Shown: positions 6,230 through 57,260 of the stretch, piece after piece | Layout: each line of letters starts with the position of its first letter | Numbering within the stretch: position 1 is the first letter of the stretch | From: an uncultured Rhodospirillales bacterium | GTDB taxonomy: Bacteria; Pseudomonadota; Alphaproteobacteria; RF32; CAG-239 | Length of the DNA: 64,000 bases | Reading direction: 5' to 3' | Assembly: GCA_902763185.1 (NCBI GenBank) | Contig: CACWQT010000001.1 | Location: 74,722 to 138,721 of the forward strand | Program-made: the position numbers and the translations under genes | Notes under the pieces: generated by a model | The model's database searches: none | What the model was told of the DNA's origin: nothing | What the model saw: the letters and a program-made list of their open reading frames with translations, nothing else

Positions 6230-6829
6230 TTATATATTCAGCCGATAGCCGTTATTTTCGGTAATAATCAGTTGATTTTTGCCGTTCTTCTCTACTTTTT
6301 GACGAACCCGGTAAATGTGGGTTTCTACCGTATGTGTGGTAGCATCGGTGCTGTATTCCCAAACATTTTTCAACAGATCTTCTTTGCTTGCCGTTACGGG
6401 GGCAGTTTGGTAAAGATATTTGATAATGTCCACTTCTTTCTCTGTCAGTTTGGTCGTTTTGCCGGTTATATCGGATACAATCTCCTTTTTAACCGGATAA
6501 AGGCTATATTCCTTAAAAGTCAAACACTCTTTTCGGCGCACTTTGGGTAGCAATGTGTTATTTTTTAGCGCACCCAACATCGGCTCTAATTTAAATGGTT
6601 TTTTGATAATTAAATCGGCATTGTTTATCGGCTTCTCTTCACTTAAAAACAAAACAACCGGAATATCTTTTATTTTCTGCGCCGTTTCTGCTTTTTCATC
6701 AATAAAGATAACATCTTCATCGCTTTGAAGTTCGTTTATCAAAACAATACTGTCTTTTAGATATTGACTTATCTGACCGGCCAAATCTTCTGCAAATATT
6801 ATGTTATCTGATAAAATCCCGATTTTCAT
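6230..6829 (-). CDS. atypical OmpR/PhoB-family winged-helix regulator (degenerate receiver domain)
   Basis: C-terminal trans_reg_C-like segment (TEKEVDIIKYL ... THIYRVRQKV ... GYRL); N-terminal receiver-like fold lacks the canonical acidic pocket / DD pair. Confidence 0.6.
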   Translation of the reverse strand: MKIGILSDNIIFAEDLAGQISQYLKDSIVLINELQSDEDVIFIDEKAETAQKIKDIPVVLFLSEEKPINNADLIIKKPFKLEPMLGALKNNTLLPKVRRKECLTFKEYSLYPVKKEIVSDITGKTTKLTEKEVDIIKYLYQTAPVTASKEDLLKNVWEYSTDATTHTVETHIYRVRQKVEKNGKNQLIITENNGYRLNI

Positions 6830-21302: not shown

Positions 21303-22679
21303 ATGGCTAAGAAATCAACAATAGATTATGTTTGCCAAACTTGCGGGGCTGTTTATCCTAAATGGCAGGGAAAATGCGATGGTTGTGGTGAATGGAATAC
21401 TATTGTTGAAGAAAAAAAGCCAACTGATGAGTTTTCTAATATAAATTCAAAACGCAAAGGTAATGTTATTGATTTTGTTTCGCTTAATGGTGAAAGTCAG
21501 ACTTATCAACGTCTTATAACCAATCTTTCTGAAATCAATCGGGTTTCCGGTGGGGGACTTGTTCCCGGTTCGGTTATTTTGGTGGGGGGTGACCCCGGCA
21601 TAGGTAAATCTACGTTGTTATTACAGATATGCGCCGGTATGGCTAATCAATTACCTAACGACAGTTGTTTTTATATTTCCGGAGAAGAAGCTATTGATCA
21701 AGTTCGAATCCGTGCCCAACGTTTAGGATTAGCTAATTCACCGGTCAGACTTGCCAGCACCACCAGTGTTAAAGATATTATCACCACTCTTGAAAAAGAA
21801 AATCCGGCTTTGGTTATTATTGATTCTATTCAAACAATGTATTTAGAGGATGTAGAATCTACACCCGGAAGTGTTGCTCAGGTCAGAGCTGCTGCTTATG
21901 AACTTATAAAAATCGCTAAAAGAAAGGGTTTTATACTGTTTCTTGTCGGCCATGTAACCAAACAAGGTGCAATTGCCGGACCGCGCGTTTTAGAGCATAT
22001 GGTTGATACTGTGCTTTATTTTGAGGGAGACAGGGGACATCATTTCCGTATTTTGCGTGCAGTAAAAAATCGCTACGGTGCAACAGATGAAATCGGTGTA
22101 TTTGAAATGCAAGATACCGGTTTGGTTGAAGTGGAAAATCCGTCCGCTTTATTTTTGGCAGAACGGCAAGGCTGTGTTTCCGGTTCTTGCGTATTTGCCG
22201 GTATTGAAGGTTCGCGTCCTTTATTGGTTGAGATACAAGCACTTGTCGGCAATAGTAGTTATGGTGGTGCAAAACGTGCTGTTGTCGGATGGGACTCTAA
22301 TCGTTTGGCTATGATTTTGGCTGTATTAGAGGCACGTTGCGGTATGAATTTCAGCACGCACGATGTTTATTTAAATATTGCCGGCGGATTAAAGATTTCT
22401 GAACCAGCAGCAGATTTAGCCGTTGCTATGGCGGTCATATCATCTATGACCAACAAGCCTCTACCGGCAGATATGGTTGTTTTCGGAGAAATTGGTTTAT
22501 CCGGAGAAATCCGTGCAGTCAGCCAGCCTAATCTGCGCCTGAAAGAAGCACAAAAATTAGGATTTAATAATGCAATTATTCCTATATCTTTTAGTAAAGA
22601 TAAAAAAACAAAACTCATTTCAGATATGACTTACCATGAAATTGGTAATGTTCAGCGTTTAATTTCAAGATTTAGTTAG
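21303..22679 (+). CDS. radA: DNA repair protein RadA
   Basis: N-terminal Zn finger CQTCG ... CDGCGEW, RecA-like GDPGIGKST, Lon-like C-terminal domain. Confidence 0.9.
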   Translation: MAKKSTIDYVCQTCGAVYPKWQGKCDGCGEWNTIVEEKKPTDEFSNINSKRKGNVIDFVSLNGESQTYQRLITNLSEINRVSGGGLVPGSVILVGGDPGIGKSTLLLQICAGMANQLPNDSCFYISGEEAIDQVRIRAQRLGLANSPVRLASTTSVKDIITTLEKENPALVIIDSIQTMYLEDVESTPGSVAQVRAAAYELIKIAKRKGFILFLVGHVTKQGAIAGPRVLEHMVDTVLYFEGDRGHHFRILRAVKNRYGATDEIGVFEMQDTGLVEVENPSALFLAERQGCVSGSCVFAGIEGSRPLLVEIQALVGNSSYGGAKRAVVGWDSNRLAMILAVLEARCGMNFSTHDVYLNIAGGLKISEPAADLAVAMAVISSMTNKPLPADMVVFGEIGLSGEIRAVSQPNLRLKEAQKLGFNNAIIPISFSKDKKTKLISDMTYHEIGNVQRLISRFS

Positions 22680-34999: not shown

Positions 35000-36205
35000 A
35001 TGTTTTATCCGGAATTTATCAAATCCCAAAAACTCTTTGTAAATGAAGATCTTTTGCATCTTTTTAAAATAATAGAAAAACATGGTGGGACTTTGCGCTT
35101 TGTAGGCGGATTTGTTCGTGATACGATTGCCGGCTATAAACATGCTGATATTGACCTTGTGACAGATTTATCACCAACAGAATTTGCCGATATTTGTGAT
35201 GATGAGGGCATAAAATGCATAAAAATCGGTTTAAAGTTTTTTTCGTTAGGTGTGATTATCAATAACAGTTTTTTCAAAGTTACAACGCTCGGACTAGATG
35301 AAGACAATATTAAGGATGTCTGGAAAGCAGATGCCGCACAGCGCGATTTAACAATTAATGCTGTTTATGCTGATGATAAAGGAAATGTATTTGACTACTT
35401 TGACGGAATAAAAGACCTTGAAAAGGGTGTAATTAAATTTATCGGGAATCCACAAAAAGCTATTGAACGCAACTATATACATATTATGCGTTTTTTCAGA
35501 TTTTGTGCGATGTTTGGGCAAAAGATTGATAAAAAATCCCTTAAAGCTTGTATTGAAAACAAAAAGTTATTGCAGCAACTTTCTCAAGAAAAAATAAAAG
35601 AAGAGCTATTTAAGATTATTATGGCGCCCTACGCTGCAAGAGCCTTAGAGCTTGTGTTTAAATACGGTGTATTAGATTTCATGATAGCTCCAGCGAAAGA
35701 TTTAGATGGCTTAAGAGTGCTAGAAGAGCTTGTCATAACTTTGGATATCGAAAGAAGTATAATCCGAAGAATCTATGTCTTATTTAAGCCAAGCATTGCA
35801 CGCGCCAACCGCCTGTCCAGTATTTTTAGGCTTACAAAAGAACAAAAAGAGCATCTGTTAACCTTATGCAACGCCAAACTAGATAAAGAAAATTTTAGTG
35901 ATTTAAAAGCAATCAATCAGTCATTATATAAATACGACAGGAATATTTGTATCGATAAATTTTTAACGGCCAATTTGGACAATCAGAATATTGAGCAGCT
36001 ATCAAAAACTTTAAATACACTGCTTTTAACACCTAGACCTATCTTTCCATTAACTGCTCAAGATTTCATAAATCTCGGCGGTGAAAAAAAATTTATCAGT
36101 GTTTATATGGAGGCTCTAAAAAACGAATGGCTAGAAAGCGGATGTCTTTTATCTAAAGATGAATTGATAGAGAAATTTAAACTAATCTTTAAATACGGTG
36201 TTTAA
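35000..36205 (+). CDS. CCA tRNA nucleotidyltransferase / poly(A) polymerase family protein
   Basis: Head-domain motif GGFVRDTIAGYKHADIDLVTD, RDLTINA; C-terminus FKYGV* is encoded by a copy of the 19-bp repeat. Confidence 0.8.
   Translation: MFYPEFIKSQKLFVNEDLLHLFKIIEKHGGTLRFVGGFVRDTIAGYKHADIDLVTDLSPTEFADICDDEGIKCIKIGLKFFSLGVIINNSFFKVTTLGLDEDNIKDVWKADAAQRDLTINAVYADDKGNVFDYFDGIKDLEKGVIKFIGNPQKAIERNYIHIMRFFRFCAMFGQKIDKKSLKACIENKKLLQQLSQEKIKEELFKIIMAPYAARALELVFKYGVLDFMIAPAKDLDGLRVLEELVITLDIERSIIRRIYVLFKPSIARANRLSSIFRLTKEQKEHLLTLCNAKLDKENFSDLKAINQSLYKYDRNICIDKFLTANLDNQNIEQLSKTLNTLLLTPRPIFPLTAQDFINLGGEKKFISVYMEALKNEWLESGCLLSKDELIEKFKLIFKYGV
35657..35676. repeat. partial/degenerate copy of 19-bp repeat (TTTAAATACGGTGTATTAGA) inside CCA/PAP gene
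   Basis: First 14 nt match, 3' arm degraded; encodes VFKYGV. Confidence 0.45.
36010..36030. repeat. degenerate copy of 19-bp repeat (TTTAAATACACTGcTTTtAAc) inside CCA/PAP gene
   Basis: 13-nt left arm plus core exact; encodes LNTLLL. Confidence 0.4.
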
Positions 36206-36206
36206 A
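36188..36206. repeat. 19-bp near-palindromic repeat TTTAAATACGGTGTTTAAA (supplies stop codon of the CCA/PAP gene)
   Basis: Motif family TTTAAATACRSYGTTTAAA; internal TAA is the gene's stop. Confidence 0.7.
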
Positions 36207-36388
36207 TAAAAAGGATTAAAATCACAAAAATCAAGTTAAATCAGCACATTATTAAATACGCCAAAAATTTATCGTACAGTGCCTAAATTTTGTTTTCATA
36301 ACAACTTACCCACAAAACAAAAACTTTTGTTCTGTGGGTAAAAAAATAGGTTTTTGTGCTATTTTAGAATAAAATGGAATAATAAGAC

Positions 36389-37261
36389 TTATTTTCTATC
36401 CAATAATTCCAAAATAGAATTTAGCTCCGCAGGATTTTTGTATTCAATACTGATTTTTCCCTTTTCAGACGTTTGGGCATTAATTTTTATTTTCATTCCG
36501 ATTTTTTTGGTTAAATCTTTTTCTAATTCTTTTAAATTCGGATCTTTTTTCTTTTTTGGAGCAATGGTTTTATTTTGATTATTTTTAATGTTATTTACTA
36601 AGTCTTCTGTTTGTCGGACTGTTAAACCTTTATCCACGATTTTTTGTGCAATAATTTCAGCATTATCCAAACCAACCAGAGTTCTTGCATGACCTGCGGT
36701 TAATTTGTTTTCTTTTATCATATTTTTAACGCTTTCCGGCAAACTTAACAAACGGATTGCATTTGTGATGTAACTGCGTGATTTTCCAACCACTTTGGAT
36801 AGAGCCTCATGTGTGTGTGCAAATTCCGTAATTAAACGATCAAAGCCCTCGGCCTCTTCTATTACTGAAAGATTTTCACGCAACAAGTTTTCAACCAAAG
36901 CAACTTCTAAAACTTCTTGGTTGGTTAATTCTTTTTCTATAACCGGAACCTCTGCAATACCGGCCAATTTTGCTGCACGCCAACGACGTTCACCGGCAAT
37001 AATTTCATATTTTTCTCCGTTTTTACGAACAATTAAAGGCTGAAGCACACCTTTTTCTTTAACAGATTGCACCAAAGCATTTAGCGCCTCTTGATTAAAT
37101 TCTTTACGCGGTTGATATGGACTTGGTAATAAATTTTCTGTTTTAACAGTTGTTATTCCGGCGTTTGAAAAGCCTTCTGCATTGATGTTTTCTAGGGAAA
37201 ATTCCAGACCATCATCACCTAATAAAGCCTCTAAACCGCGACCTAAACCATGCTTTGACAT
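36389..37261 (-). CDS. parB: chromosome partitioning protein ParB
   Basis: ParB box GERRWRAAKLAG, HTH region. Confidence 0.9.
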   Translation of the reverse strand: MSKHGLGRGLEALLGDDGLEFSLENINAEGFSNAGITTVKTENLLPSPYQPRKEFNQEALNALVQSVKEKGVLQPLIVRKNGEKYEIIAGERRWRAAKLAGIAEVPVIEKELTNQEVLEVALVENLLRENLSVIEEAEGFDRLITEFAHTHEALSKVVGKSRSYITNAIRLLSLPESVKNMIKENKLTAGHARTLVGLDNAEIIAQKIVDKGLTVRQTEDLVNNIKNNQNKTIAPKKKKDPNLKELEKDLTKKIGMKIKINAQTSEKGKISIEYKNPAELNSILELLDRK

Positions 37262-37262
37262 A

Positions 37263-38033
37263 CTATATCTCCTTTTCTCTTTTTAAAACTTCTTTAGCTA
37301 AATTTAAATAAGCTTTAGCTCCCGTGCTTTTGAAATCATAAATTAAAATCGGTTGTCCATGCGACGGCGCTTCAGAAATTCTGACGCTTCTTGGAATAAC
37401 CGTGTTATAAACTTTGGCGCCAAAATATTTACGCACATCATTTTCTACCATTTGGCTTAAATTATTGCGCTTATCATACATTGTTAAAACAATACCCTGA
37501 ATGTTCAACTTGGAATTAAAATTCTTTTTTATGGTGTTGATATTTTTGATTAAATCCGTCAACCCTTCAAGCGCTAAAAATTCACTTTGTAGCGGAACGA
37601 TAACCGAATCAGATGATACAAGAGCATTAATTGTTATCAGGTTTAATGACGGCGGACAATCAATTAAAATATAATCATATTTTGAACCGATGCTATTTAA
37701 TGCCGACTTTAATACATATTCCCGTCTGTTAAAGTCTATTAGTTCAATTTCTGCCGCTGCGAGTGCCGGCGCAGAGGGTAAAATATCAAATTTTTTAATA
37801 TCTGTTTTAATGATAGCTTCTTCGGGACGGCAATTGTTTATCATAACATCATAGGTAGAAAACAGGCATTTATTTTTATTTATCCCTAAAGAAGTTGTCG
37901 CATTGCCCTGCGGATCCATATCCAAAATTAAAACTCTTTTACCAATAGCCGCCATAGCAGTAGCAATATTTATAGCTGTTGTTGTTTTACCTACACCGCC
38001 TTTGCGGTTTGCTACGGATATGATTTTAACCAT
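37263..38033 (-). CDS. parA: chromosome partitioning ATPase ParA
   Basis: Deviant Walker A NRKGGVGKTTTAIN. Confidence 0.9.
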   Translation of the reverse strand: MVKIISVANRKGGVGKTTTAINIATAMAAIGKRVLILDMDPQGNATTSLGINKNKCLFSTYDVMINNCRPEEAIIKTDIKKFDILPSAPALAAAEIELIDFNRREYVLKSALNSIGSKYDYILIDCPPSLNLITINALVSSDSVIVPLQSEFLALEGLTDLIKNINTIKKNFNSKLNIQGIVLTMYDKRNNLSQMVENDVRKYFGAKVYNTVIPRSVRISEAPSHGQPILIYDFKSTGAKAYLNLAKEVLKREKEI

Positions 38034-38649
38034 TTATATTTCTCCTAATATTTTTTATCAATAAGACCCGACCTTTTTCAGATGTTTCACTTGAAAATGA
38101 TTGGTGCTCAAACGTCCATTTTTGCTCTGCTGTTTTTATTTCTTCTTGCCACTTTTCACCTTTTAGGAATAAAAGTTTAGTTTCTTTATTACAAAACGGT
38201 TTGGCATATTGTAATAACTTTTCTAATGAAGCCATTGCTCTTGATGTTATAATATCCGCTTTCGGTAAAGTCAACTTTTCTATACGCTCGGGCAATACAA
38301 CCATATTAAGTTTTAGCTTTTTATTGACTTCGCTTAAGAATGTTGCTTTTTTACCGATGCTTTCTATCAGTGTAATTTTCAGATTAGGATAAAGCTCTCT
38401 ACTTATTATAGCTAAAACAACGGCCGGAAAGCCCGCCCCTGATCCGAAGTCATACAATGTTTTATCTTCATTCTTTATATACTGAATCAGTTGTGCTGAA
38501 TCAAGAACATGGCGCTCCCAGATATCCTCAACCGATGATTTACTAATCAGATTAAACTTTTCGTTCCATTCCAAAACCATGTTCTGAAAAGTAACTAAAT
38601 TTTCTGTTGTTTCACGTGAAACATTATATTTCTCTAGCAAATTTTCCAT
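38026..38649 (-). CDS. rsmG: 16S rRNA m7G527 methyltransferase RsmG
   Basis: SAM-MTase fold (DFGSGAGFPAVVLAI); contains a perfect parS. Confidence 0.9.
   Translation of the reverse strand: MENLLEKYNVSRETTENLVTFQNMVLEWNEKFNLISKSSVEDIWERHVLDSAQLIQYIKNEDKTLYDFGSGAGFPAVVLAIISRELYPNLKITLIESIGKKATFLSEVNKKLKLNMVVLPERIEKLTLPKADIITSRAMASLEKLLQYAKPFCNKETKLLFLKGEKWQEEIKTAEQKWTFEHQSFSSETSEKGRVLLIKNIRRNING
38073..38088. promoter_or_regulatory. degenerate parS-like half-palindrome (TGTTTCACTTGAAAAT) at rsmG 3' end
   Basis: 13/16 match. Confidence 0.3.
38608..38623. promoter_or_regulatory. parS: parS centromere site (perfect consensus TGTTTCACGTGAAACA) inside rsmG
   Basis: Exact 16-bp palindrome; encodes NVSRET of RsmG. 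Confidence 0.85.
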
Positions 38650-38710
38650 GAAAATGATAATATTTTATTCTTTTTTATTTGGAATAAAATAAACGAAGTT
38701 ATGAACAAAA

Positions 38711-40561
38711 CTATTTTGCGTTTTTCATATATCCCAGGATAGCGATAATTGCCGCTGGTGTAATACCTGATATCCGAGAAGCTTCACCAATAGTTGACGG
38801 ACGCGCTTTATCAAGCTTAGAAACAACTTCACGCGAAAGTCCACCAATTTTACTGTAATCAATATCTGGAAAAATTTTCACCATTTCATCTTTTTTGAAA
38901 ACCTCAATATCGATTGATTGTCGTTTCATATATCCCGAGTATTTCGATTCTATTGCAATTTGTTCATAAACAGCATCATCTATCGTTGCAAATTCCGGAA
39001 TAATTTTTTCTATTGTTTCACGTGAAACATCACTATTCCCCATCAACTCAAAGAGAGTGTGTTTCGGACTATCTTTCTTAAGGGGTAGATTATACTCTTC
39101 TATTTCCATCTTACTGATTTTAATATCTTTTGTTAGTTGGCTGTATTTTTCTATTGCTTCCTTTTTAGCTTTAAATACACCGTATCTTTTTTCAGACACA
39201 CATCCGATTTTATATCCCCTTTCCGTTAATCGCATATCAGCATTATCAGCGCGCAATGATAGACGATATTCAGCCCGAGACGTGAAAACACGGTATGGTT
39301 CATCTACCCCTTTGGTAATTAAATCATCTACCATTACACCAATATAGCTTTCACTTCTGTCGGTATAAAATTCATCTTTATCTTGAGAATACAGTCCTGC
39401 ATTAATACCGGCAAGACAACCTTGAGCTGCGGCCTCCTCATATCCGGTTGTGCCGTTTATTTGTCCTGCAAGGTATAAACCTTTAACTTTTTTGGTTGCC
39501 AAACAATGATTCAGTTCTCGCGGATCCACAAAATCATATTCAATAGCATATGCATAGCGTAAAATCTCAACATCTTCCAAACCTTTTATTGTATGAATAA
39601 ATTCATCTTGAACATCTGCCGGCAAAGAAGTAGATATACCATTCGGATAAACAACATCAGTGTCATAACCTTCCGGCTCCAAAAAAATTTGATGACTAGT
39701 TTTATCGGCAAATTTAACAAGCTTATCTTCAATACTCGGGCAGTAACGCGGACCAACGCCGGTAATCAAACCTGAAAACAGAGCGCATTTAGAAAAATTA
39801 TCTCTAATGATTTTATGGGTTGTTTCGTTGGTGTGTGTAATGTAGCACTTAATTTGAGGCTGTGGCAATTCTTTTGTTAAAAATGAAAATGGTATAGGTT
39901 TTTTATCCCCCTCTTGCTCATCTAATATATCCCATTTAATTGTCTTACCATTCAAGCGGGCAGGGGTTCCTGTTTTCAAGCGACCAACAGATAGGCCGGC
40001 ATCCTTTAAATACGATGTTATACCCTTGCAACTTACGTCATTAACACGTCCACCTATTGTTGTTTTATGTCCAGTAAACATTATGCCGTTTAAAAACGTG
40101 CCTGTCGTTAAAACAACAGCCTTTGCAAAATATTTTTCTCCCTCAGCAGAAACAACACCTTTGATTTCTTTATCGTCGATAATCAACCCTTCAACAGCTT
40201 TTTCTATTATAATTAAATTATCTTGTTCCTGAAGTGCTTCCAGCATGTATTTTTTATACAAATCCCGATCAGCTTGAGCTCGCGGGCCTTGGACAGCCGG
40301 TCCTTTAGAGGCATTTAACATTCTAAATTGTATACCAGCTTTATCAATAACCCTTGCCATAAGACCATCAAGCGCATCAATTTCACGCACCAAATGACCT
40401 TTTCCCAAGCCACCAATAGCCGGATTACAGGACATTTCACCAATTGTATTTATTTTGTGAGTGATTAAAGCTGTTTTTGCACCAGTTCTGGCAGCTGCGG
40501 CTGCCGCTTCGCACCCGGCATGACCACCACCAACAACTATGACATCAAATTTATTCATCAA
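38711..40561 (-). CDS. mnmG: tRNA uridine 5-carboxymethylaminomethyl modification enzyme MnmG
   Basis: FAD motif [12 protein letters not shown], 616 aa; contains a perfect parS. Confidence 0.95.
39014..39029. promoter_or_regulatory. parS: parS centromere site (perfect) inside mnmG
   Basis: Exact TGTTTCACGTGAAACA; encodes DVSRET near the MnmG C-terminus. Confidence 0.85.
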
Positions 40562-40642
40562 ATAAGCCTCTTTTGTGTTTGTTTTCGCGTTATTCTACAT
40601 GTTTTTTTGTAGATTTCAAGGATTATCTCTTACTAAATTTAT

Positions 40643-40671
40643 TGACAAATAAAACTTTTAGTTTATATAAA
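40643..40671 (+). promoter_or_regulatory. sigma70-like promoter for orphan ORF
   Basis: TTGACA - 17 bp - ATATAA about 30 bp upstream of ATG 40703, with AAAGAGG SD. Confidence 0.5.
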
Positions 40672-40702
40672 AACAAAAACACAACCGTTAAAAGAGGCAA
40701 AA

Positions 40703-42040
40703 ATGTCCGATAGGAAAATGTTTATAAATACAGAAAAAGAATTATTGCTCAAAAATTTATTTTATTCTGCCCAAGATAAAAAATTGTTCAAAATGTTTGA
40801 TAAGCAATTAGCACAGCAACGCTTCACGAACATATCGATATTGTCCTCAAATGAAAATATATTAAATTTAAGCGCTATAAGTATAACAATAAACGATTTA
40901 AGAAATATTGTTACCAAGTTCCTTAATACAAAAAAAACAGCTACTATTTTTTCCGGCCGGTCACTCTATGAATTGGTTAAGTTTTCAAACTTATCTTCCC
41001 AAAAAATTAATAATAGCCTTTCTTGTCAAAAAATTTCATCCTTATGCAATAAATTATCAGATGTTTCACATGAAACAACGCACATCAGCTTCGATTTTAT
41101 GATTTTACATATCGCTTGTAATTTAATTACCAAAATTTCCGATGCTGATCATAAGAAAGAATTAATTTTATTAAAAAAAGAAGTTTGCCACAATTTAGTA
41201 GCAAAAAAATATCTACCGGAAGAAAAAAACAAACCGAATACCTACTTATGCTGGATTGATATGTTGCTAAATCTGACCATTTCAGGTGATATATCCATTG
41301 ATAATTATATAGCTATTTGTAATAAAATTATTGCACTTGTTTATTTTAATCCTGATATTTTATGGAAGATATCTTCTGCTACCTCATATTTATTACAGAT
41401 TTCCTATTTTTGTGACGCAACGTGTTTAAGAAATTTTAGAAGAAGAATATTAAACAGTGCATCTACTACAAATTCAAATTGCGAAATCAATGAGCAAAAG
41501 ATATCAAATTTATTAATCCAAACTCTTTCTAATAGCAACATCTGCAAAGAGGATTACTATTGTTTATTTGCTAATATGCTATGTTTCTCGCAAAATAATT
41601 TAAGGGATAAACTTTATTGTCTTAAGATTTTTCATTATCTCTTTTACAGGCATACAATAAAAAGCATTTTTTCATACAGGCATATTCGTGAAAACCTTTT
41701 AAATACACTGTTTAAAATCATAGATAACAATGATAATACAGAAACAGATGAAAGTTCTTTTCTTTTTTTATGTAAACTGCTTATAGATAAAGAAAATTTC
41801 GAATCTCATTTTAATAATCTTTACAATGCGGCTCTTTTTATACTAAAAAGGATCGGTAATAACCCCGCCAATACAACGCCTCAAAAATTCTATAAATACT
41901 GTAGCATTTTAGACTATTTAGCCAAGAGAAACAAACTCAATACAAACGTTTGTTTGCCAGAAATTTTAGCCAACTCAAATCACCAAACCAAATTAATAAA
42001 GAAACATCTAAAAACACTGACATTTAAATACAGCGTTTAA
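40703..42040 (+). CDS. orphan hypothetical protein (445 aa, Leu/Asn/Cys-rich, no TM) inserted between mnmG and mnmE
   Basis: Long ORF with own promoter and SD; no recognisable domain; interrupts the otherwise conserved mnmE-mnmG adjacency. Confidence 0.6.
   Translation: MSDRKMFINTEKELLLKNLFYSAQDKKLFKMFDKQLAQQRFTNISILSSNENILNLSAISITINDLRNIVTKFLNTKKTATIFSGRSLYELVKFSNLSSQKINNSLSCQKISSLCNKLSDVSHETTHISFDFMILHIACNLITKISDADHKKELILLKKEVCHNLVAKKYLPEEKNKPNTYLCWIDMLLNLTISGDISIDNYIAICNKIIALVYFNPDILWKISSATSYLLQISYFCDATCLRNFRRRILNSASTTNSNCEINEQKISNLLIQTLSNSNICKEDYYCLFANMLCFSQNNLRDKLYCLKIFHYLFYRHTIKSIFSYRHIRENLLNTLFKIIDNNDNTETDESSFLFLCKLLIDKENFESHFNNLYNAALFILKRIGNNPANTTPQKFYKYCSILDYLAKRNKLNTNVCLPEILANSNHQTKLIKKHLKTLTFKYSV
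41053..41068. promoter_or_regulatory. parS: parS-like site (1 mismatch, TGTTTCACATGAAACA) inside orphan ORF
   Basis: 15/16 match to parS; encodes DVSHET. Confidence 0.6.
41698..41716. repeat. 19-bp repeat copy TTTAAATACACTGTTTAAA inside orphan ORF (encodes LNTLFK)
   Basis: Exact family match. Confidence 0.7.
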
Positions 42041-42041
42041 A
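42023..42041. repeat. 19-bp repeat copy TTTAAATACAGCGTTTAAA spanning orphan-ORF stop, 1 bp from the mnmE stop
   Basis: Family match with flanks catTTTAAA...TTTAAAtta identical to the 45446 copy. Confidence 0.7.
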
Positions 42042-43379
42042 TTATTTACCAATACAAAAACTGGAAAAGATATTATCCAAAATTTCATCTACCTTGACAA
42101 GACCGGTTATTGAACCAAGAGAGCGGCAAGCAAGACGAATATCTTCTGCTGATAATTCTATTTCTTTATTTAAGGAAAAGCGATTCAAATTATCTAAACA
42201 ATCTTTAAGTGCTTCTCGGTAGCGTTGACGAGTTATAAGATTTCCTGAGGAAGGGGTGAACTTTTCTTTAATAAAAGATACTAATTCATCTACTAAAATA
42301 TTAATACCGTTCTGATATTTTGCAGATATTAATATGTGGTTACTTTGTTTTATTCTTTCTTTTTGTTCTTCCGATAATTTATCGGCTTTATTGGCTACAT
42401 AAAAAACTTTTTCTACATCATTCGGCAATAATGTATTATCAAAATCCCCCACTGAGGCATCATACAAAGCTAATACAGCATCAGCTTCTTTTATTTTATT
42501 TAAGGCAATTTCTATACCCTGCTTTTCTATTTCATTATCAGCATTTCTTATCCCGGCGGTATCAGTAATAATAACAGGATATCCTTTGATATCTAAACTG
42601 ATATCTACAGCATCACGGGTGGTGCCGGCAATATCCGAAACAATCATGGTATTATTTTTAGTAAGTGCATTTATCAGGCTTGATTTACCTGCATTAGCAG
42701 CACCTGCCACGACAATTCTAAAACCATTTTTGAGTCTTTCATTTACATTATTACCCTCTAAATGTTTCTCTATTTCTTCACGCACTTTAAATACAGTGTT
42801 TAAAATACTTTCAGATAAATTATCCGGTATTTCTTCATCAGGGAAATCGATGTATGCCTCAAGATAAGATAGAATTTTTACTAAACTTTCACGCCATGAA
42901 TAGTATAGATTTTTTAAATTACCACTCATTTGTTTAATAGCATATTTTTGCTGTTCTGAGGTTTCAGCATCAATCAGGTCAGCCAAACCCTCGGCTTCTG
43001 TTAAATCCATTTTATTATTATGAAAAGCACGTTTTGAAAATTCTCCAGCCTCAGCTAAACGGACATTCTCAAAACCGGATAAAAGTTTAAATACACTGTT
43101 TAAAACAGCTTTTGACCCATGGCATTGAATTTCTAACACATCTTCTCCGGTAAAAGAATGCGGTGCATTAAAATATAAAATCAGACATTTATCTATTGTT
43201 TCACGTGTAACATTATTTTTGAGATCAATAAAATAAGCGTATCGTGGCTTGATTTTTTTTATATCCAAATAGGTAATTTGCGAGATAATATTTTTTACCT
43301 CATTACCGGATATACGTATCACAGCAACACCTGATTTTCCATAAACCGTTGATAAAGCATATATTGTTTTATTATCCAT
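42042..43379 (-). CDS. mnmE: tRNA modification GTPase MnmE
   Basis: G1 GAANAGKSSL, C-terminal FCIGK. ORF track start 43427 is a TTG with no SD; the ATG at 43377-43379 has a GAGGTG SD and gives canonical N-terminus MDNKTIYALST. Confidence 0.9.
   Translation of the reverse strand: MDNKTIYALSTVYGKSGVAVIRISGNEVKNIISQITYLDIKKIKPRYAYFIDLKNNVTRETIDKCLILYFNAPHSFTGEDVLEIQCHGSKAVLNSVFKLLSGFENVRLAEAGEFSKRAFHNNKMDLTEAEGLADLIDAETSEQQKYAIKQMSGNLKNLYYSWRESLVKILSYLEAYIDFPDEEIPDNLSESILNTVFKVREEIEKHLEGNNVNERLKNGFRIVVAGAANAGKSSLINALTKNNTMIVSDIAGTTRDAVDISLDIKGYPVIITDTAGIRNADNEIEKQGIEIALNKIKEADAVLALYDASVGDFDNTLLPNDVEKVFYVANKADKLSEEQKERIKQSNHILISAKYQNGINILVDELVSFIKEKFTPSSGNLITRQRYREALKDCLDNLNRFSLNKEIELSAEDIRLACRSLGSITGLVKVDEILDNIFSSFCIGK
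42786..42804. repeat. 19-bp repeat copy TTTAAATACAGTGTTTAAA inside mnmE (encodes LNTVFK on the minus strand)
   Basis: Exact consensus. Confidence 0.75.
43086..43104. repeat. 19-bp repeat copy TTTAAATACACTGTTTAAA inside mnmE (encodes LNSVFK)
   Basis: Exact family match; central CAGTG/CACTG inverted relative to other copies. Confidence 0.75.
43197..43212. promoter_or_regulatory. parS: parS-like site (1 mismatch, TGTTTCACGTGTAACA) inside mnmE
   Basis: 15/16 match; encodes NVTRET. Confidence 0.6.
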
Positions 43380-43409
43380 TTTACACCTCGTTTTTATCTC
43401 TCTAGCAAA

Positions 43410-43420
43410 TGTATTTAAAT
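43410..43420. repeat. half-site of 19-bp repeat (TGTATTTAAAT) in the mnmE promoter spacer
   Basis: Matches the TTTAAATACA arm; lies between a TTGACT -35-like hexamer and the mnmE SD. Confidence 0.3.
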
Positions 43421-43500
43421 TAGTCAAAGGTTTTATTATATAAGCTTTTTTAACTCTTGTTTGATAAAATAGATACAGATTGATTTTTAAGGATAATTAA

Positions 43501-44163
43501 ATGAAGAAAAATTTGGTTATTTGGGATTTTGACGGTGTTATAGCTGATAGTGAAAAAATTTGGATTAAAAATCGACAAGAAGCCGTTAATAAATTATTTC
43601 ATCTTAATTGGGATTTTCAGACAACAAATAAATATCTTGGCGGAATGGGGGATAAAACTAAGCGACAGGTTTTAGATACCATGGGTTACAAAACCGATGA
43701 TGCCTTTTGGAAGGATCAATTAGAAATGGATATGGCAATTATGCGGCGTGACGGTTTAGAAATAACACCATATGTTGAAGAAATTATCAAAAAGTTACCT
43801 AAGCAATGTGTCGCTACCGGTGGAATTAAAAGCAAAACAATTGTTAAATTAGAAGTTATCGGATTTTGGAATAAATATTTTAATGATGACAATTTATTTA
43901 CCATAGATATGGTTAAAAACGGTAAACCTGAACCGGATTTATTTCTTTTAGCGGCAAAGACTATGAATGAACTCCCAAAAGATTGTGTTGTGATAGAAGA
44001 TTCCGTTGCCGGTATTACTGCCGCACAAAGAGCCGGTATGGATGTTATTGCATTTTTAGGATGCGAAATGTATCATAACAACACATATCTAGAACGTGTT
44101 AAACAAACCGGAGTTAAAAATATTTGCTTTGATATGAGAGAAGTTAAAAAAATACTGCTATAA
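43501..44163 (+). CDS. HAD-superfamily hydrolase (beta-phosphoglucomutase-like)
   Basis: DxDG motif VIWDFDGVIADSE, C-terminal ED..AGI..A block. Confidence 0.75.
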   Translation: MKKNLVIWDFDGVIADSEKIWIKNRQEAVNKLFHLNWDFQTTNKYLGGMGDKTKRQVLDTMGYKTDDAFWKDQLEMDMAIMRRDGLEITPYVEEIIKKLPKQCVATGGIKSKTIVKLEVIGFWNKYFNDDNLFTIDMVKNGKPEPDLFLLAAKTMNELPKDCVVIEDSVAGITAAQRAGMDVIAFLGCEMYHNNTYLERVKQTGVKNICFDMREVKKILL

Positions 44164-44185
44164 ACTCCAATAATTTTTACTTAAT

Positions 44186-45340
44186 TTATTTTTTAGTATT
44201 TTTAAGGGCAACAAAAAACAGACTGTTACTCGTTAAAGCCAAAATATAAAAACACAGCATGGCGGTATAAGGGTTGGTCATATCTGCCAACATTCCGATT
44301 AAAACGGCGCACAGCGAATAAAACAGCGAGCCGAACAAGGAAACAATTGATAAAATGGTGGCTCTTTCTTGTGCACTGCAATCATTTTGAATTAAGGTAT
44401 CTTGCGCCGGTTCTTTCAAACCGCTACAAAACGTAGAGATGATTTTAATAACCGGACTCCATACACTTGCCGCCAACACCGAAATAATGTTATTTAAGTT
44501 ATCGCAACAAGCTCCAAACAGAATGGTAAATTTCAAGCCCCAACGCTTGGCCAATAAAAAAGAAAAATAGTTGCCGAGACTGTTGGCAAAATGTCCGATA
44601 CTTCTGAATATTCCCAAACTCCACTCCGGTACAAATTGCTTGAAAAATACGGAATTAAAGTCAAAAGCGGCTTCGTTTAATCCATAATGCAAAGTTTCGG
44701 CCAAAGATATGGTTCTTAATCTCTTATGTTTGAGTAGATATTTTAAGGATTTTAATATGTGTAAAATGTTTGTGTTGTTGTCCTTATACGTCTTTTTAGG
44801 CTCAACTATTTTTATGGTTATTATAAAGGCAATAACTGCAGGTGCAATACTTGCTATCATCACGGCACGCAGAGATATAAAAACAAACACCATTCCGAGC
44901 AAAGAACCTAATGCCAAAGAAAGTTGCGATAATGATGTATTTTTAGAGATTTCTTGATGATAATCGTCTTTGCGATTTATCTGCACAAGACTGTCATAAA
45001 GCAACGCACTATTATTTCCGCTCGCTAGGGCTGAAGATAGCCCGTTTAATACCGAAGCAAAGGCCAATACGAAATAGTTTCCTGCAATAGCATAGAAAAT
45101 AAAAGATACTAACATAAATCCTGTGCCGGCACAACAAACCCATTTTCTACCCCATTTATCCGAAAGACATCCGGTCGGAACTTCTAAAAGAGTAATAGAT
45201 ATGTTTTGAATGGCAAAAAGGCTCATTGCCTCAACCAAACTGTCGCAAACTTGTGCAAAGAACAGAACTTTTATCGGATAAAATAAAATGAAACTATCCC
45301 AAAAACTGTGCCAATGCAGATATTTTATATTCTTTTCCAT
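44186..45340 (-). CDS. MFS transporter
   Basis: 12 predicted TM, MFS signature GCLSDKWGRK. Confidence 0.75.
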   Translation of the reverse strand: MEKNIKYLHWHSFWDSFILFYPIKVLFFAQVCDSLVEAMSLFAIQNISITLLEVPTGCLSDKWGRKWVCCAGTGFMLVSFIFYAIAGNYFVLAFASVLNGLSSALASGNNSALLYDSLVQINRKDDYHQEISKNTSLSQLSLALGSLLGMVFVFISLRAVMIASIAPAVIAFIITIKIVEPKKTYKDNNTNILHILKSLKYLLKHKRLRTISLAETLHYGLNEAAFDFNSVFFKQFVPEWSLGIFRSIGHFANSLGNYFSFLLAKRWGLKFTILFGACCDNLNNIISVLAASVWSPVIKIISTFCSGLKEPAQDTLIQNDCSAQERATILSIVSLFGSLFYSLCAVLIGMLADMTNPYTAMLCFYILALTSNSLFFVALKNTKK

Positions 45341-45418
45341 ATTAAAGCTCTTTGATTTACCTTCAATTCATAATTATATTTTAACAAAATTTTATACAAA
45401 GCAAACAAAAAATCCGCA

Positions 45419-45433
45419 AAGGTTATTAACCTT
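45419..45433. promoter_or_regulatory. 15-bp perfect palindrome AAGGTTA-T-TAACCTT upstream of the MFS transporter gene
   Basis: 7-bp arms around a single centre base; about 80 bp upstream of the MFS start (minus strand). Confidence 0.35.
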
Positions 45434-45445
45434 AACGGATACACA

Positions 45446-45464
45446 TTTAAATACAGTGTTTAAA
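45446..45464. repeat. 19-bp repeat copy TTTAAATACAGTGTTTAAA immediately 3' of the rho stop codon
   Basis: Exact consensus, ends 1 bp before the rho stop (45465-45467). Confidence 0.75.
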
Positions 45465-46718
45465 TTAACTATTCATTGTATCAAAGAAGTCTTGATTATC
45501 TTTGGTATTACGCAACTTCTCAAGTAAGAATTCCATACCGTCGGTCATTCCCATTTGCATCAGCACACGGCGGAGAACCCACATTTTACTTAACGTTGCT
45601 TTATCAACCAATAACTCCTCTTTACGTGTTCCGGAACGCGTTACATCAATGGTCGGGAAGAGACGCTTATCGGTTAATTTTCTATCCAAAATAATCTCAG
45701 AGTTACCTGTACCTTTAAATTCTTCAAAAATAACTTCATCCATACGTGAGCCTGTATCAATCAGTGCTGTTGCAATAATGGTTAAAGAACCACCTTCTTC
45801 AACATTACGCGCAGCACCTAATAAACGCTTCGGGCGTTGAAGGGCATTAGCATCTACACCACCGGTTAAAACTTTACCGGATGAAGGTACAACTGTGTTA
45901 TATGCACGACCTAAACGAGTAATAGAATCGAGTAAAATAACGACATCTTTTTTATTTTCAACCAAACGCTTCGCTTTTTCTATTACCATTTCAGCAACCT
46001 GAACATGACGAGATGCCGGTTCATCAAAAGTTGAGGATATAACTTCACCTTTAACTGAGCGTGTCATATCTGTCACTTCTTCCGGACGCTCATCAATCAA
46101 CAAAACAATTAAAAAGATTTCCGGATGATTGGTTGCAATCGCATGAGCTATATTTTGTAACATAACCGTTTTACCGGTTCTCGGTGGTGCCACAATCAAA
46201 CCACGCTGTCCTTTACCTTGCGGAGAAATTAAATCAATAACCCGAGTGGTATAATCTTTATCTCCGCAGATAATATCAAAATTAAGTTTCTCGGTCGGAT
46301 AAAGAGGGGTTAAGTTATCAAAATTAACCCGTAATTTAGATTTTTCCGGATCATCGTAGTTAATGGTATTAATTTTAGTCAAAGCAAAATAACGTTCATT
46401 TTCTTTTGGGGCGCGAATTTCACCTTCTACCGTATCACCGGTTCTTAAACCGTATCTTTTGACCTGTTGAGGAGACACATAAATATCATCAGCAGACGCA
46501 AGATAGTTTGACTGGGCTGAACGCAAGAATCCAAATCCATCTTGCATAACCTCTATTACACCATCGCCATAAATAATGTTGTCATCATCTGCAACTTTTT
46601 TCATAATTGCAAAAACGAGGTCTTGAACGCGCATAGATGAAGCGTCTTCAACTCCTAACTCTTCAGCTTGACTAAGAAGCTCTTTAGGGGATTTATCTTT
46701 TAAATCTTTTAAATGCAT
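45465..46718 (-). CDS. rho: transcription termination factor Rho
   Basis: OB-fold RNA-binding domain, Walker A GKTVMLQ, 417 aa. Confidence 0.95.
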
Positions 46719-47205
46719 GGGAATACCTTGAAATAGGTTAGTGAAATTTAAAATTTTTTTGTTATTCTTTTTATAGCTAAAAGTTTTTAAGAGTCAATTA
46801 TTTTATTGATTAGAATAAAGACGGTTTTTTTTGAAAAAATGTTTTGCACAGGTCTTTTTCATTAAATTATTAATTAATTTTTTTGTTTTTATTTGTTAAA
46901 GGCTGTTAATATTGTGAATAAAATTTTATCCATAGATTTTTACACAAAATTTAGTATGTTGTTAGAAAACTTGTGTGCGAATCTAAAAAATTGTTTTTAA
47001 AACAAAAATTTGATTAAAAATAAATAATGTTTATAAGTAGCAGTTATAAACAAAATTAACAGTTGTGAACATCATCAAAGAAAAATGTTAATAAGTTTTG
47101 TTTCTTTTTTGGGAAATGGTGATAAATTTGATAATAATTTTATAAGAGATATATTTATGCACAACAGGACTTCAAGATGTGAATAAAAATTTTTTAGAGG
47201 ATAAA

Positions 47206-56627: not shown

Positions 56628-57260
56628 TTATATCAGCCCTAATTTTTGTGCTGTAATAACGGCTTGGGTTCGATTGTTGACTTTTAGGCTGCGTAAGAGA
56701 GCATTTATGTGTAATTTAACCGTTGCTTCTGATACCCCCATATCATAAGCAATTTGTTTGTTAGATTTTCCTTGGGCAATTAAATCCAAAACCTGTGATT
56801 GGCGATTGGTTAAATTCTTTTTCAGGAAAGGAGGATTTTTGTTTTCTCCATTTTGGTTAAGATTGTTCTCAAGCAATATCGGCGGTAAATATGTTCCGCC
56901 ATCTAGTATTAGTTTTAAGGCACCGCTTAAAATATTACTATCCGATCTTTTGGGTATATATCCTTTAACACCGTAAGATAAAATTTTTTTGATATTTCTG
57001 ATTTCTTCTGAGGCAGATATGGCAACAATTTTGGCGTTTGGTGTCAGCGTTTTTATTTTTCCAATGATTTCAGCGGCACTTAATTCTGCTAAATCAATGT
57101 CTAATAAAATGATATCTGCATCAATATTCTCGGATAATATTTTTTGCATTTCTGCAAGAGAAGATGTTTGTAAAATCGTGATATTCGGATTAATTTGTTT
57201 TAGGCGTAAAGATAGTCCGTCTCTGAATAAGGCCTGCTCGTCCGTTATTAAAACTTTCAT
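56628..57260 (-). CDS. NarL/FixJ-family response regulator (REC + LuxR HTH)
   Basis: Receiver (ILLDIDL, K at KGYIPK) plus LuxR-type HTH (LTNRQSQVLDLIAQGKSNKQIA). Confidence 0.85.
   Translation of the reverse strand: MKVLITDEQALFRDGLSLRLKQINPNITILQTSSLAEMQKILSENIDADIILLDIDLAELSAAEIIGKIKTLTPNAKIVAISASEEIRNIKKILSYGVKGYIPKRSDSNILSGALKLILDGGTYLPPILLENNLNQNGENKNPPFLKKNLTNRQSQVLDLIAQGKSNKQIAYDMGVSEATVKLHINALLRSLKVNNRTQAVITAQKLGLI

Follow-up and report, generated by a model that had tools for sequence, protein, structure and literature searches.

What is the short sequence that recurs around parA and parB in an uncultured Rhodospirillales bacterium, and why is it kept there? The window, that is, the whole stretch of 64 kb that was analysed, was originally predicted to contain a family of 19-bp near-palindromes that cluster around parAB and are interleaved with parS sites. 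Here, the repeated element is described as an oriented, asymmetric unit of 13-16 bp, of which the window holds 10 exact copies, all on the plus strand and all between 35657 and 45464 (9.8 kb). Comparison with related genomes indicates that this 16-bp oriented element is under purifying selection at the DNA level, independent of coding. Positions follow the numbering of the whole window, and L-numbers denote loci fetched from related assemblies; the window sequence is also contained in a metagenome-assembly record (ENA ERZ27279972, contig k141_91868).

The repeated unit and its copies in the window

A logo of 139 distinct instances from related genomes defines the conserved unit as the oriented 13-16-mer TTTAAATAC-RSY-G(TWT), the full 16-mer being TTTAAATAC-RSY-GTWT. 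Read position by position, it consists of TTTAAATAC, R (A 76%, G 22%), S, Y (T 76%), G, T (94%), W, and T; outside positions 1-16 nothing is conserved, and no flanks are common to the copies. The layout is that of a fixed 9-mer, followed by a loose 3-nt spacer which completes a small palindrome (ACASTGT), and then by GT and a T-rich tail. The right-hand TTTAAA, which had suggested a near-palindrome, is optional: it is found at +13 in 52 of the 139 instances, and a full second unit begins at +13 in 8 of them. At other loci, 2-3 complete units follow each other head to tail at a distance of exactly 13 bp (L020, L030, L077, L101, and L118; those of L030 read TTTAAATACACCG TTTAAATACAATG TTTAAATACAGTG), and in L031, L034, and L054 one exact unit is followed by a second one with 1 mismatch. 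These tandem units explain the 19-mer, which consists of an oriented unit and the six opening bases (TTTAAA) of another unit placed head to tail behind it. The real unit is the asymmetric 16-mer, and the supposed inversion of the central pentamer (CAGTG versus CACTG) is free variation at the spacer position S. In the window, the right part RSYGTTTAAA showed no enrichment beyond the six full copies.

A function as hairpin or cruciform was rejected, as the fold is weak and equals that of shuffled sequences: for the 19-mer as single-stranded DNA, hairpin energies of -1.8 to -2.7 kcal/mol were computed, which is inside the shuffle range, and no hairpin forms at the mnmG site that was tested, which is among the three best conserved.

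In the window, the 19-mer TTTAAATACRSYGTTTAAA is matched exactly six times (36188, 41698, 42023, 42786, 43086, and 45446), always on the plus strand; the number expected from dinucleotide-preserving shuffles is 0. If up to 3 mismatches are allowed, the sole match outside 35.6-45.5 kb is a weak one at 21829, where 1.1 are expected by chance. The left part TTTAAATACRSYG occurs 9 times, compared to 0.04 expected per 64 kb, always on the plus strand and within 35657-45458, and the 9-mer TTTAAATAC occurs 11 times (3 expected in 64 kb), always within 35657-45454 and ten times on the plus strand. The clustering is therefore real and even stronger than had been claimed, with no exact copy elsewhere in the 64 kb. 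Further copies of TTTAAATAC were found neither in an extra 10 kb to the right, taken from the same strain (L136), nor in 8 kb to the left, taken from a near-identical strain (L137), which makes ~82 kb of strain-level sequence in all.

The exact units are listed below; fractions give the number of species with an exact 13-mer at the orthologous place. PAP stands for the CCA/poly(A) polymerase, and the orphan ORF is an open reading frame without any family.

35657..35672, plus strand: unit 1, TTTAAATACGGTGTAT, inside the PAP gene, read as FKYGVL; 7/10 species
36010..36025, plus strand: unit 2, TTTAAATACACTGCTT, inside the PAP gene, read as LNTLL; 8/10 species
36188..36213, plus strand: unit 3, 19-mer form, supplies the PAP stop (FKYGV-stop); 8/10 species
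39170..39185, plus strand: unit 4, TTTAAATACACCGTAT, antisense in mnmG, read as xVFK, 156 bp from the parS site at 39014; 10/10 species
40005..40020, plus strand: unit 5, TTTAAATACGATGTTA, antisense in mnmG, in a different frame, read as YLK; 10/10 species
41698..41716, plus strand: unit 6, 19-mer form, inside the orphan ORF, read as LNTLFK; species-specific
42023..42041, plus strand: unit 7, 19-mer form, supplies the orphan ORF stop (FKYSV-stop) and abuts the convergent mnmE stop
42786..42804, plus strand: unit 8, mnmE site A, antisense in mnmE, LNTVFK, residues 209-214; 10/10 protein-fetched species
43086..43104, plus strand: unit 9, mnmE site B, antisense in mnmE, LNSVFK, residues 109-114, 111 bp from the parS site at 43197
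45446..45464, plus strand: unit 10, 19-mer form, intergenic, abuts the rho stop, 1.3 kb from the probable oriC

Unit 3 is followed by a degenerate second tandem unit, TTTAAATAAAAAG. One-mismatch versions of unit 6 are present in L131 and L132. A unit at the 3' end of mnmE was found in 9/10 species, and a unit behind the rho stop in 6/9 species, L028 having two copies there. Site B of mnmE is an exact unit in 7/10 species; the rest carry LNSVLN, a version shifted by 1 nt. A single copy in the window is reversed:

43411..43419, minus strand: 9-mer TTTAAATAC (unit with G13 replaced by T), in the promoter region between the divergent mnmE and HAD genes

This 9-mer is kept in the closest relatives alone (L131, L132, L122), and its membership in the family is doubtful. 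It falls into the promoter region because the true start of mnmE is probably ATG 43379 and not TTG 43427.

With respect to the original copy list, the six 19-mers stand (seven full copies had been counted, of which six were given), the two copies regarded as degraded (35657 and 36010) turned out to be full units, the copy placed at 43410 is the lone reversed 9-mer, and the mnmG units at 39170 and 40005, which bring the total to 10, had been overlooked. The peptides had been read correctly (LNSVFK from residue 109 and LNTVFK from residue 209 of MnmE, LNTLFK in the orphan ORF), as had the positions at gene ends in PAP, the orphan ORF, and rho, and the copies at 42023 and 45446 do have common flanks.

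The surrounding gene map, which is supported by a Pfam search of the window proteins, is as follows.

35000-36205, plus strand: CCA/poly(A) polymerase (PAP)
36389-40561, minus strand: parB, parA, rsmG, mnmG
40703-42040, plus strand: orphan ORF, without any family in the Pfam search
42042-43427, minus strand: mnmE, gene call of 445 aa
between mnmE and rho: HAD hydrolase (plus strand) and MFS transporter (minus strand)
45465-46718, minus strand: rho
right of rho, plus strand: coaE and dnaQ

Between the convergent genes PAP and parB (36305-36342), there is a hairpin with a 17-bp stem whose arms each contain TTACCCACA; it resembles a bidirectional intrinsic terminator. The segment between mnmE and rho (43501-45340) is a cargo hot spot across L121, L122, and L131-L135.

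Conservation of position and orientation in related genomes

In order to place the element, the 19-mer was scanned against one genome per species. Among the matches listed, two classes can be distinguished: background single matches in unrelated AT-rich taxa, and many matches in metagenome-assembled genomes (MAGs) from gut or rumen that are named "Alphaproteobacteria bacterium". Most matches of the second class listed map to the rho-mnmE-mnmG-rsmG-parAB-PAP neighbourhood. Since these loci had been picked by the motif itself, a second set was fetched via proteins, namely by a scan with MnmE (L121-L130) and by collecting contigs that encode homologues of the orphan ORF (L131-L135). The colinear set comprises 11 loci from 10 species or strains, with MnmE identities down to 66% and PAP identities down to 60%.

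In the 112.6 kb of PAP-rho intervals of the 11 colinear loci, we found 87 exact units (13-mers). Their flanks, amounting to 101.4 kb, contain none, and none lies on the opposite strand; the co-orientation is 87/87. Orthologous sites are retained at MnmE identities of 66-72% and PAP identities of 60-65%, that is, comparison of orthologous genes, which had been suggested as a check, reveals identical nucleotides at identical places across 10 species. The proposal of a second cis element of the origin domain, co-clustered with parS, is borne out by the contrast between 87 units in the intervals and 0 in the flanks. A mobile miniature repeat, the other option considered originally, does not agree with the orthologous positions, the lack of common flanks, and the lack of a stable hairpin.

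More distant relatives (MnmE identity 56-63%, GC content 27-44%) still possess 4-8 co-oriented units around parS, some of which are at new places, for example in rsmG: sites turn over, the cluster persists. In lineages at 39-44% MnmE identity no units were detected. Uncultured Alphaproteobacteria of gut and rumen share the arrangement across a clade of family level. As the sites lie in unrelated genes and are nevertheless co-oriented, orientation itself must be selected.

Selection on DNA and not on the encoded peptides

Translated, the unit yields five contexts: FKYxV within PAP and at the stops of PAP and the orphan ORF, LNTL in PAP and the orphan ORF, NxVFK in mnmE, and xVFK and, in another frame, YLK in mnmG. 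In addition, there are intergenic copies, and the host genes lie on both strands. The 19-mer of site A would encode LNTVFK in either orientation; one orientation alone occurs. The codons brought in by the unit are minority codons (TAC 19% of Tyr, GTA 17% of Val, AAC 28% of Asn), and outside the cluster FKY is coded by TTTAAATAT. Codon alignments of mnmE, mnmG, PAP, and rsmG from 10 species contain identical codons at 10-15% of the invariant residues. In these alignments, mnmE has its longest invariant nucleotide run at site A, in the motif (18/19 nt fixed), and the longest and second-longest invariant runs in mnmG are the units at 39170 and 40005. MnmE sequences of outgroups can be aligned without gaps at both sites, which means that the units arose in place; the view that the copies inside genes are in-place substitutions is thereby confirmed.

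The original prediction had named one outcome that would speak against it, namely that the same nucleotides recur in relatives due to conservation of the encoded peptides. Conservation of peptides or codon bias as the cause is ruled out by the codon alignments with their 10-15% codon identity, by the five reading contexts, and by the rare codons. None of the Rfam families, tRNAs, and promoter-like or terminator-like signals searched for coincides with the units. Both mnmE copies (42786-42804 and 43086-43104) contain in frame the -1 slippery heptamer U_UUA_AAC, with a stop in the -1 frame five codons farther on; the motif sequence probably produces this by chance.

Location of the array at the centromere and beside a probable origin

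The features which place the array on the chromosome are given below without strand.

38608..38623: parS, exact TGTTTCACGTGAAACA, in rsmG; longest invariant run of rsmG in 10 species
39014..39029: parS, exact, in mnmG
41062..41077: parS, 1 mismatch, in the orphan ORF
43197..43212: parS, 1 mismatch, in mnmE
46719..47178: probable oriC, rho-coaE intergenic region; 21% GC, DnaA-box-like 9-mers, GANTC, sign switch of the skew

The units bracket and interleave these four conserved parS sites, as had been noted for the 19-mers. The parS site of the orphan ORF is found at the same offset (nt 360) in six loci fetched via the orphan protein, and in the orphan ORF of most other loci.

In 10 species, the rho-coaE intergenic region has a GC content of 18-27% and contains at least 5 positionally conserved DnaA-box-like 9-mers and a conserved GANTC. 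The GC skew at third codon positions (GC3 skew), calculated on a single strand irrespective of gene orientation, switches there from about -0.1 on the left to +0.3 to +0.6 on the right in nearly all colinear loci; farther left, in 1-35 kb of the window, it is about +0.04. In Alphaproteobacteria, the gene order rho-mnmE-mnmG-rsmG-parAB is usual beside oriC. Taken together, AT-richness, DnaA-box-like 9-mers, GANTC, the skew switch, and the gene order identify the rho-coaE intergenic region as the probable oriC. Two observations on this region are worth recording. Two-armed replication should yield mirror-image skew values; the oddly weak GC3 skew on the left coincides exactly with the side of the probable oriC on which the array lies. 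Moreover, TTAA-N7-TTAA, the spacing of CtrA-type boxes, was found 3 times in the window, compared to 11 expected, and not at all in the probable oriC, a paucity which is unusual for an alphaproteobacterial origin.

From a point 1.3 kb away from the probable oriC, the array reaches across the parS sites and ~3 kb past them. ParB typically occupies ~10-20 kb around parS, and site-specific DNA binders can act on ParB spreading (PMC7333895). The span of the array (~10 kb) matches the 10-20 kb scale of ParB occupancy.

Units at other loci

Among the matches listed, those in Alphaproteobacteria that lie outside the PAP-rho neighbourhood are not random and recur at conserved loci. These are the intergenic region between oprB and an operon of a Zn-protease and a 7TM-transglutaminase, the gene junctions of a moxR-DUF58 operon beside uvrD, and the region upstream of gatC-gatA; further recurrent places are directly past the rpsA stop, at the trkA stop, and inside ruvA. 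In 8-kb loci elsewhere, eight further non-tandem units were identified, all of which (8/8) are oriented like the neighbouring unit. On one contig, the cluster of the moxR-DUF58-uvrD-gatC region is located 109 kb from mnmE and is oriented like the parS cluster. The element is therefore strongly concentrated at the centromere and not exclusive to it; its restriction to the origin domain, which had been suggested by the window, has to be given up in view of these smaller co-oriented clusters.

Several copies at these loci occupy peculiar places. In the moxR-DUF58 operon (L101, 1222 and 2187; L118, 542-567; L031, 3403-3428), intergenic gaps of ~25 nt are almost filled by an antisense unit, which puts GUAUUUAAA in the mRNA ~8 nt upstream of the next start codon. 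In L114 (2890-2935), a copy of the 19-mer forms the loop of a terminator-like hairpin, AAAACTCCTAC-[motif]-AGGAGTTTT. In L072 and L119, copies are placed behind rpsA, between the stop codon and an intrinsic terminator.

Comparison with known site families

The unit was compared with a set of known consensus sites, in the case of parS without gaps. None of them fits the unit: parS agrees at 6/16 positions, the Noc-binding site (NBS) at 7/16, the DnaA box at 6/9, CtrA at 6/9, KorB at 9/13, KorA at 9/12, and IHF at 7/9. The same is true for the consensus sequences of ram, matS, the dif arm, ICE, the cop box, and the FtsK-orienting polar sequences (KOPS). A full-text literature search (with the 9-mer, for second motifs associated with parS, and for polar roadblocks) retrieved no description of the motif and nothing relevant. 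The original statement that nothing known matches the sequence holds for the consensus sites compared and the literature searched.

With respect to location and conservation, parS-ParB is the closest analogue. Like parS, the unit occurs in several copies within ~10 kb beside oriC, many of them inside rsmG, mnmG, and mnmE, and it is kept at synonymous positions, where it makes up the longest invariant nucleotide runs of its host genes. In contrast to parS, which is a perfect palindrome, the unit is asymmetric and co-oriented, is unrelated to TGTTTCACGTGAAACA, and forms head-to-tail arrays with a period of 13 bp as well as small clusters far from the origin. Four canonical parS sites are present alongside and have not been replaced by it.

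The systems ram-RacA of Bacillus subtilis, NBS-Noc, SBS-SlmA, where SBS is the SlmA-binding site, and matS-MatP offer a functional parallel, as unevenly distributed specific sites would in each case load one protein onto one domain. The ram sites are enriched around the origin, and the unit is likewise strongly enriched around the probable origin. However, the sites of these systems are palindromes for dimers that follow no orientation rule, are spread over hundreds of kb, and belong to other phyla, whereas the units are packed at 1 per kb. NBS in particular, which is read by a ParB paralogue, is a palindrome that differs from parS by two bases per half-site; the unit is asymmetric and matches it at 7/16 positions. 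Noc and NBS constitute a domain-specific binding-site family (PMC7333895).

The asymmetry and co-orientation of the unit (87/87, and 8/8 for the extra units) are best compared to the replication fork traps Ter-Tus and RTP, whose sites are of similar length. Ter sites are asymmetric, form co-oriented groups, often lie in genes or at gene ends, and are conserved in position; the units resemble them in their place at gene ends and in their conserved positions. But Ter sites constitute two opposed groups around the terminus, whereas the array abuts the probable origin and no opposed set was seen in the loci covered; there is no sequence similarity between Ter and the unit.

The tandem form, with 2-3 units at the oprB, moxR, and gatC loci, is reminiscent of the short head-to-tail repeats of plasmid centromeres and iterons (parC-ParR, the heptads of ParG and omega, and Rep iterons). 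The arrays of the unit are short, though, most chromosomal copies are single and kilobases apart, and no gene for a small cognate binding protein adjoins the arrays.

DNA uptake sequences (DUS) and uptake signal sequences (USS) are short oriented words, too, which within genes are tolerated in the open frame alone, are common at gene ends, and are conserved between species. They occur hundreds to thousands of times per genome, whereas the unit is absent from more than 100 kb of flanks; all copies in ~82 kb lie within 9.8 kb, and no MAG dominated among the matches listed. In CtrA boxes, TTAA-N7-TTAA(C), one helical turn separates the half-sites; the 19-mer has N9 between its two TTAA, and tandem units repeat every 13 bp. 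A cluster of DnaA boxes of the datA or DARS type differs in that the best match of the unit to TTATCCACA is 6/9 and boxes of the canonical type are located in the rho-coaE intergenic region instead. KOPS and Chi consist of 5-8 nt, occur about once per 5-15 kb genome-wide, and are oriented by replichore, whereas the unit has a core of 16 nt and is found with both signs of skew. Repetitive extragenic palindromes (REP) and bacterial interspersed mosaic elements (BIME), miniature inverted-repeat transposable elements (MITE), and Rickettsia palindromic elements have a common sequence that exceeds the core, a stable hairpin or terminal inverted repeats, and a presence that differs from strain to strain; the unit shows no conservation beyond its 16 positions and no stable hairpin, and its sites are orthologous from species to species.

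In summary, the closest analogies would be parS for location and conservation, Ter for asymmetry and co-orientation, and plasmid centromere repeats for the occasional tandem form, and the unit has the defining features of no family compared. Judged by its sequence, it is a real, conserved family of cis elements that appears to be previously undescribed and that would belong with the chromosome-domain-specific binding-site arrays, set apart from them by its orientation rule.

Candidates for the cognate protein

The orphan ORF (40703-42040) is the sole lineage-specific gene in the array. Its 445-aa product is a confidently modelled alpha-solenoid, the fold of which matches generic ARM/HEAT repeats alone. 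The gene is clade-restricted, always located between mnmG and mnmE, and fast-evolving, with 56% identity between strains whose MnmE proteins are 92% identical. It was rejected as reader of the unit, as its homologues are all hypothetical proteins and the gene is missing in more distant carriers of the motif. A 345-aa HisKA/HATPase protein from a 1.4-kb contig (P0012) is 100% identical to 28% of the orphan ORF and probably results from a chimeric assembly.

Two regulators encoded in the window were considered and likewise rejected, as no unit lies nearby and no other link to the motif was found: an atypical OmpR-family protein with a short, degenerate receiver domain, which adjoins a porin gene (6230-6829), and a NarL/GerE-type response regulator 9.5 kb to the right of the probable oriC (56628-57260). 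There is no second gene of the ParB family in the 64-kb window or in the loci examined. The neighbours of the tandem arrays encode a porin, Zn-protease, MoxR, DUF58, UvrD, GtrA, GatA, S1, RuvA, TrkA, and an ABC transporter; no gene for a small DNA-binding protein is among them.

Possible functions of the array

From the sequence of the units, their clustering, their co-orientation, and their coding-independent conservation, we infer that they are binding sites of one sequence-specific protein, which the array loads onto the centromere and origin region; we give this explanation about an even chance. Each 16-bp unit would be bound by this protein, and selection at the DNA level retains about ten co-oriented copies in ~10 kb, together with four parS sites and beside the probable oriC. 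The array would concentrate the bound protein on the region proximal to centromere and origin in the manner of parS-ParB, ram-RacA, NBS-Noc, and matS-MatP, where it might position or anchor the origin region, or shape the ParB-parS partition complex. The same protein would use the tandem arrays of 2-3 units and the small clusters at a few other loci.

Several points weigh against this explanation. No reader protein was found, and the motif does not depend on the orphan ORF, as more distant relatives bear the motif without this gene. Nor is the element restricted to the origin region, as co-oriented clusters and tandem arrays exist at other conserved loci; the protein could hence be a general regulator or a nucleoid protein. 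The genome-wide distribution is known in fragments, that is, from contigs, and the scan counts refer to the matches listed. Finally, a simple landing pad does not account for the strict co-orientation of sites that are hundreds to thousands of bp apart. Co-orientation across kilobases in unrelated genes, which is needless for a passive landing pad, rather suggests a tracking process that acts from one side.

Alternatively, the units may serve as operators for a conventional transcription regulator, such as a response regulator acting on direct repeats, with the origin cluster being a by-product or a dosage or titration sink. Its actual targets would then be the promoter-proximal arrays that precede gatC-gatA, the operon of Zn-protease and 7TM protein, and a small ORF in L015; at these three conserved loci, co-oriented genes indeed have 2-3 full 13-bp units ~100-150 nt upstream. 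Regulators of the OmpR and NarL types typically use head-to-tail repeats, and one of each type is encoded in the window (6230-6829 and 56628-57260); datA, which doubles early in replication, provides a precedent for a sink, in that case of DnaA. We nevertheless regard this alternative as unlikely. Most units of the main cluster are inside genes or at convergent 3' ends with no promoter to regulate, and promoter-like sites are not enriched in the cluster (42 found, 53.7 in shuffles). A period of 13 bp places successive units ~86 degrees out of helical phase, compared to 10-11 bp in known tandem regulators. No unit is near either regulator gene, and the genes concerned have no common functional theme.

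A distinctly doubtful alternative is that the units are a polar signal for a machine that tracks along DNA (the replisome, SMC/condensin, ParB clamps, or a translocase) and act as a barrier like Ter-Tus or CTCF or as a guide like KOPS or Chi. Such a signal would be located between oriC and the centromere, and either a protein bound to it or the naked sequence would be effective from a single side. It is favoured by the strictness of the co-orientation (10/10 units in the window, 87/87 across species), which extends to the extra units in other clusters (8/8 like their neighbours) and to the cluster 109 kb away, and by the argument that orientation must itself be selected; in addition, the asymmetry of the GC3 skew is found exactly at the place of the array. 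The simplest version, in which orientation follows the direction of replication, is ruled out by mixed signs: GC3 skew on the motif strand is +0.35 to +0.6 at seven loci, but -0.1 to -0.3 at the parS and uvrD clusters. The element is also far rarer and longer than KOPS or Chi, being missing from the 101 kb of flanks, known fork traps surround the terminus and not the origin, and the units flank parS on both sides in one absolute orientation, which is not symmetric for SMC loaded at parS. A more specific proposal, to which we assign a similarly low probability, is a directional barrier at the centromere, where sliding ParB-CTP clamps, SMC loop extrusion, or the leftward replisome would be halted or let pass one-sidedly by the bound protein. 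Such a barrier would limit the partition complex or make replication or arm alignment asymmetric beside oriC, and it would account for the conserved weak GC3 skew on the array side of the origin.

A role of the units as sites of recombination or integration, or an origin from a selfish short repeat whose remnants mark cargo hot spots, is very improbable. What speaks for it is that the cargo beside the units varies by species: the mnmE-rho segment contains HAD, MFS, acyltransferase, or small ORFs, L132 has an extra ORF after PAP, L041 has HD-domain genes after mnmG, and L122 differs from L121 by an extra MFS gene, a second motif copy, and a duplicated 3' end of rho (residues 373-417). Moreover, the 6-7-6 layout of the 19-mer resembles the core site of a recombinase. 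But the junction in L122 is inside rho (residue 373) and not at the motif, which fits homologous recombination; no integrase, transposase, or recombinase gene was found in any locus examined; and the best conserved units are single 13-16-mers in essential genes that lack a second arm and any flanking sequence common to the copies. A phage origin was rejected, as a search of viral contigs gave no tandem motif.

A signal at the RNA level (processing, stability, or recoding), or a by-product of peptide or codon-usage conservation, could be read from the in-frame heptamers of both mnmE copies and from several copies just past stops and ahead of intrinsic terminators (after rpsA, beyond RlmN), but our tests have largely refuted it already and make it the least credible explanation, as all copies are on one DNA strand and the host genes on both, so that the same RNA would be sense in some genes and antisense in others, as the unit is found in five contexts and between genes and runs counter to codon bias, and as there is neither an Rfam match nor a stable fold.

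Implications for the origin region of this clade

The organisation of bacterial origin regions is attributed mainly to ParB-parS, together with a few lineage-specific systems that are known from model organisms alone. The units add a second element, as conserved as parS and strictly oriented, that runs through the centromere of a whole clade of gut and rumen Alphaproteobacteria. Their orientation rule hints at a directional mechanism; we know of no bacterial centromere accessory that has one. For these MAGs, the units are useful as a marker of oriC and parS, with TTTAAATACNNNGT as search form. The element has a short, exact definition and occurs in many metagenomes, which allows its reader to be sought without culture of the organism. 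If the sequence evidence is read correctly, the finding implies that a further DNA-binding factor would act on the origin and centromere region of these bacteria.

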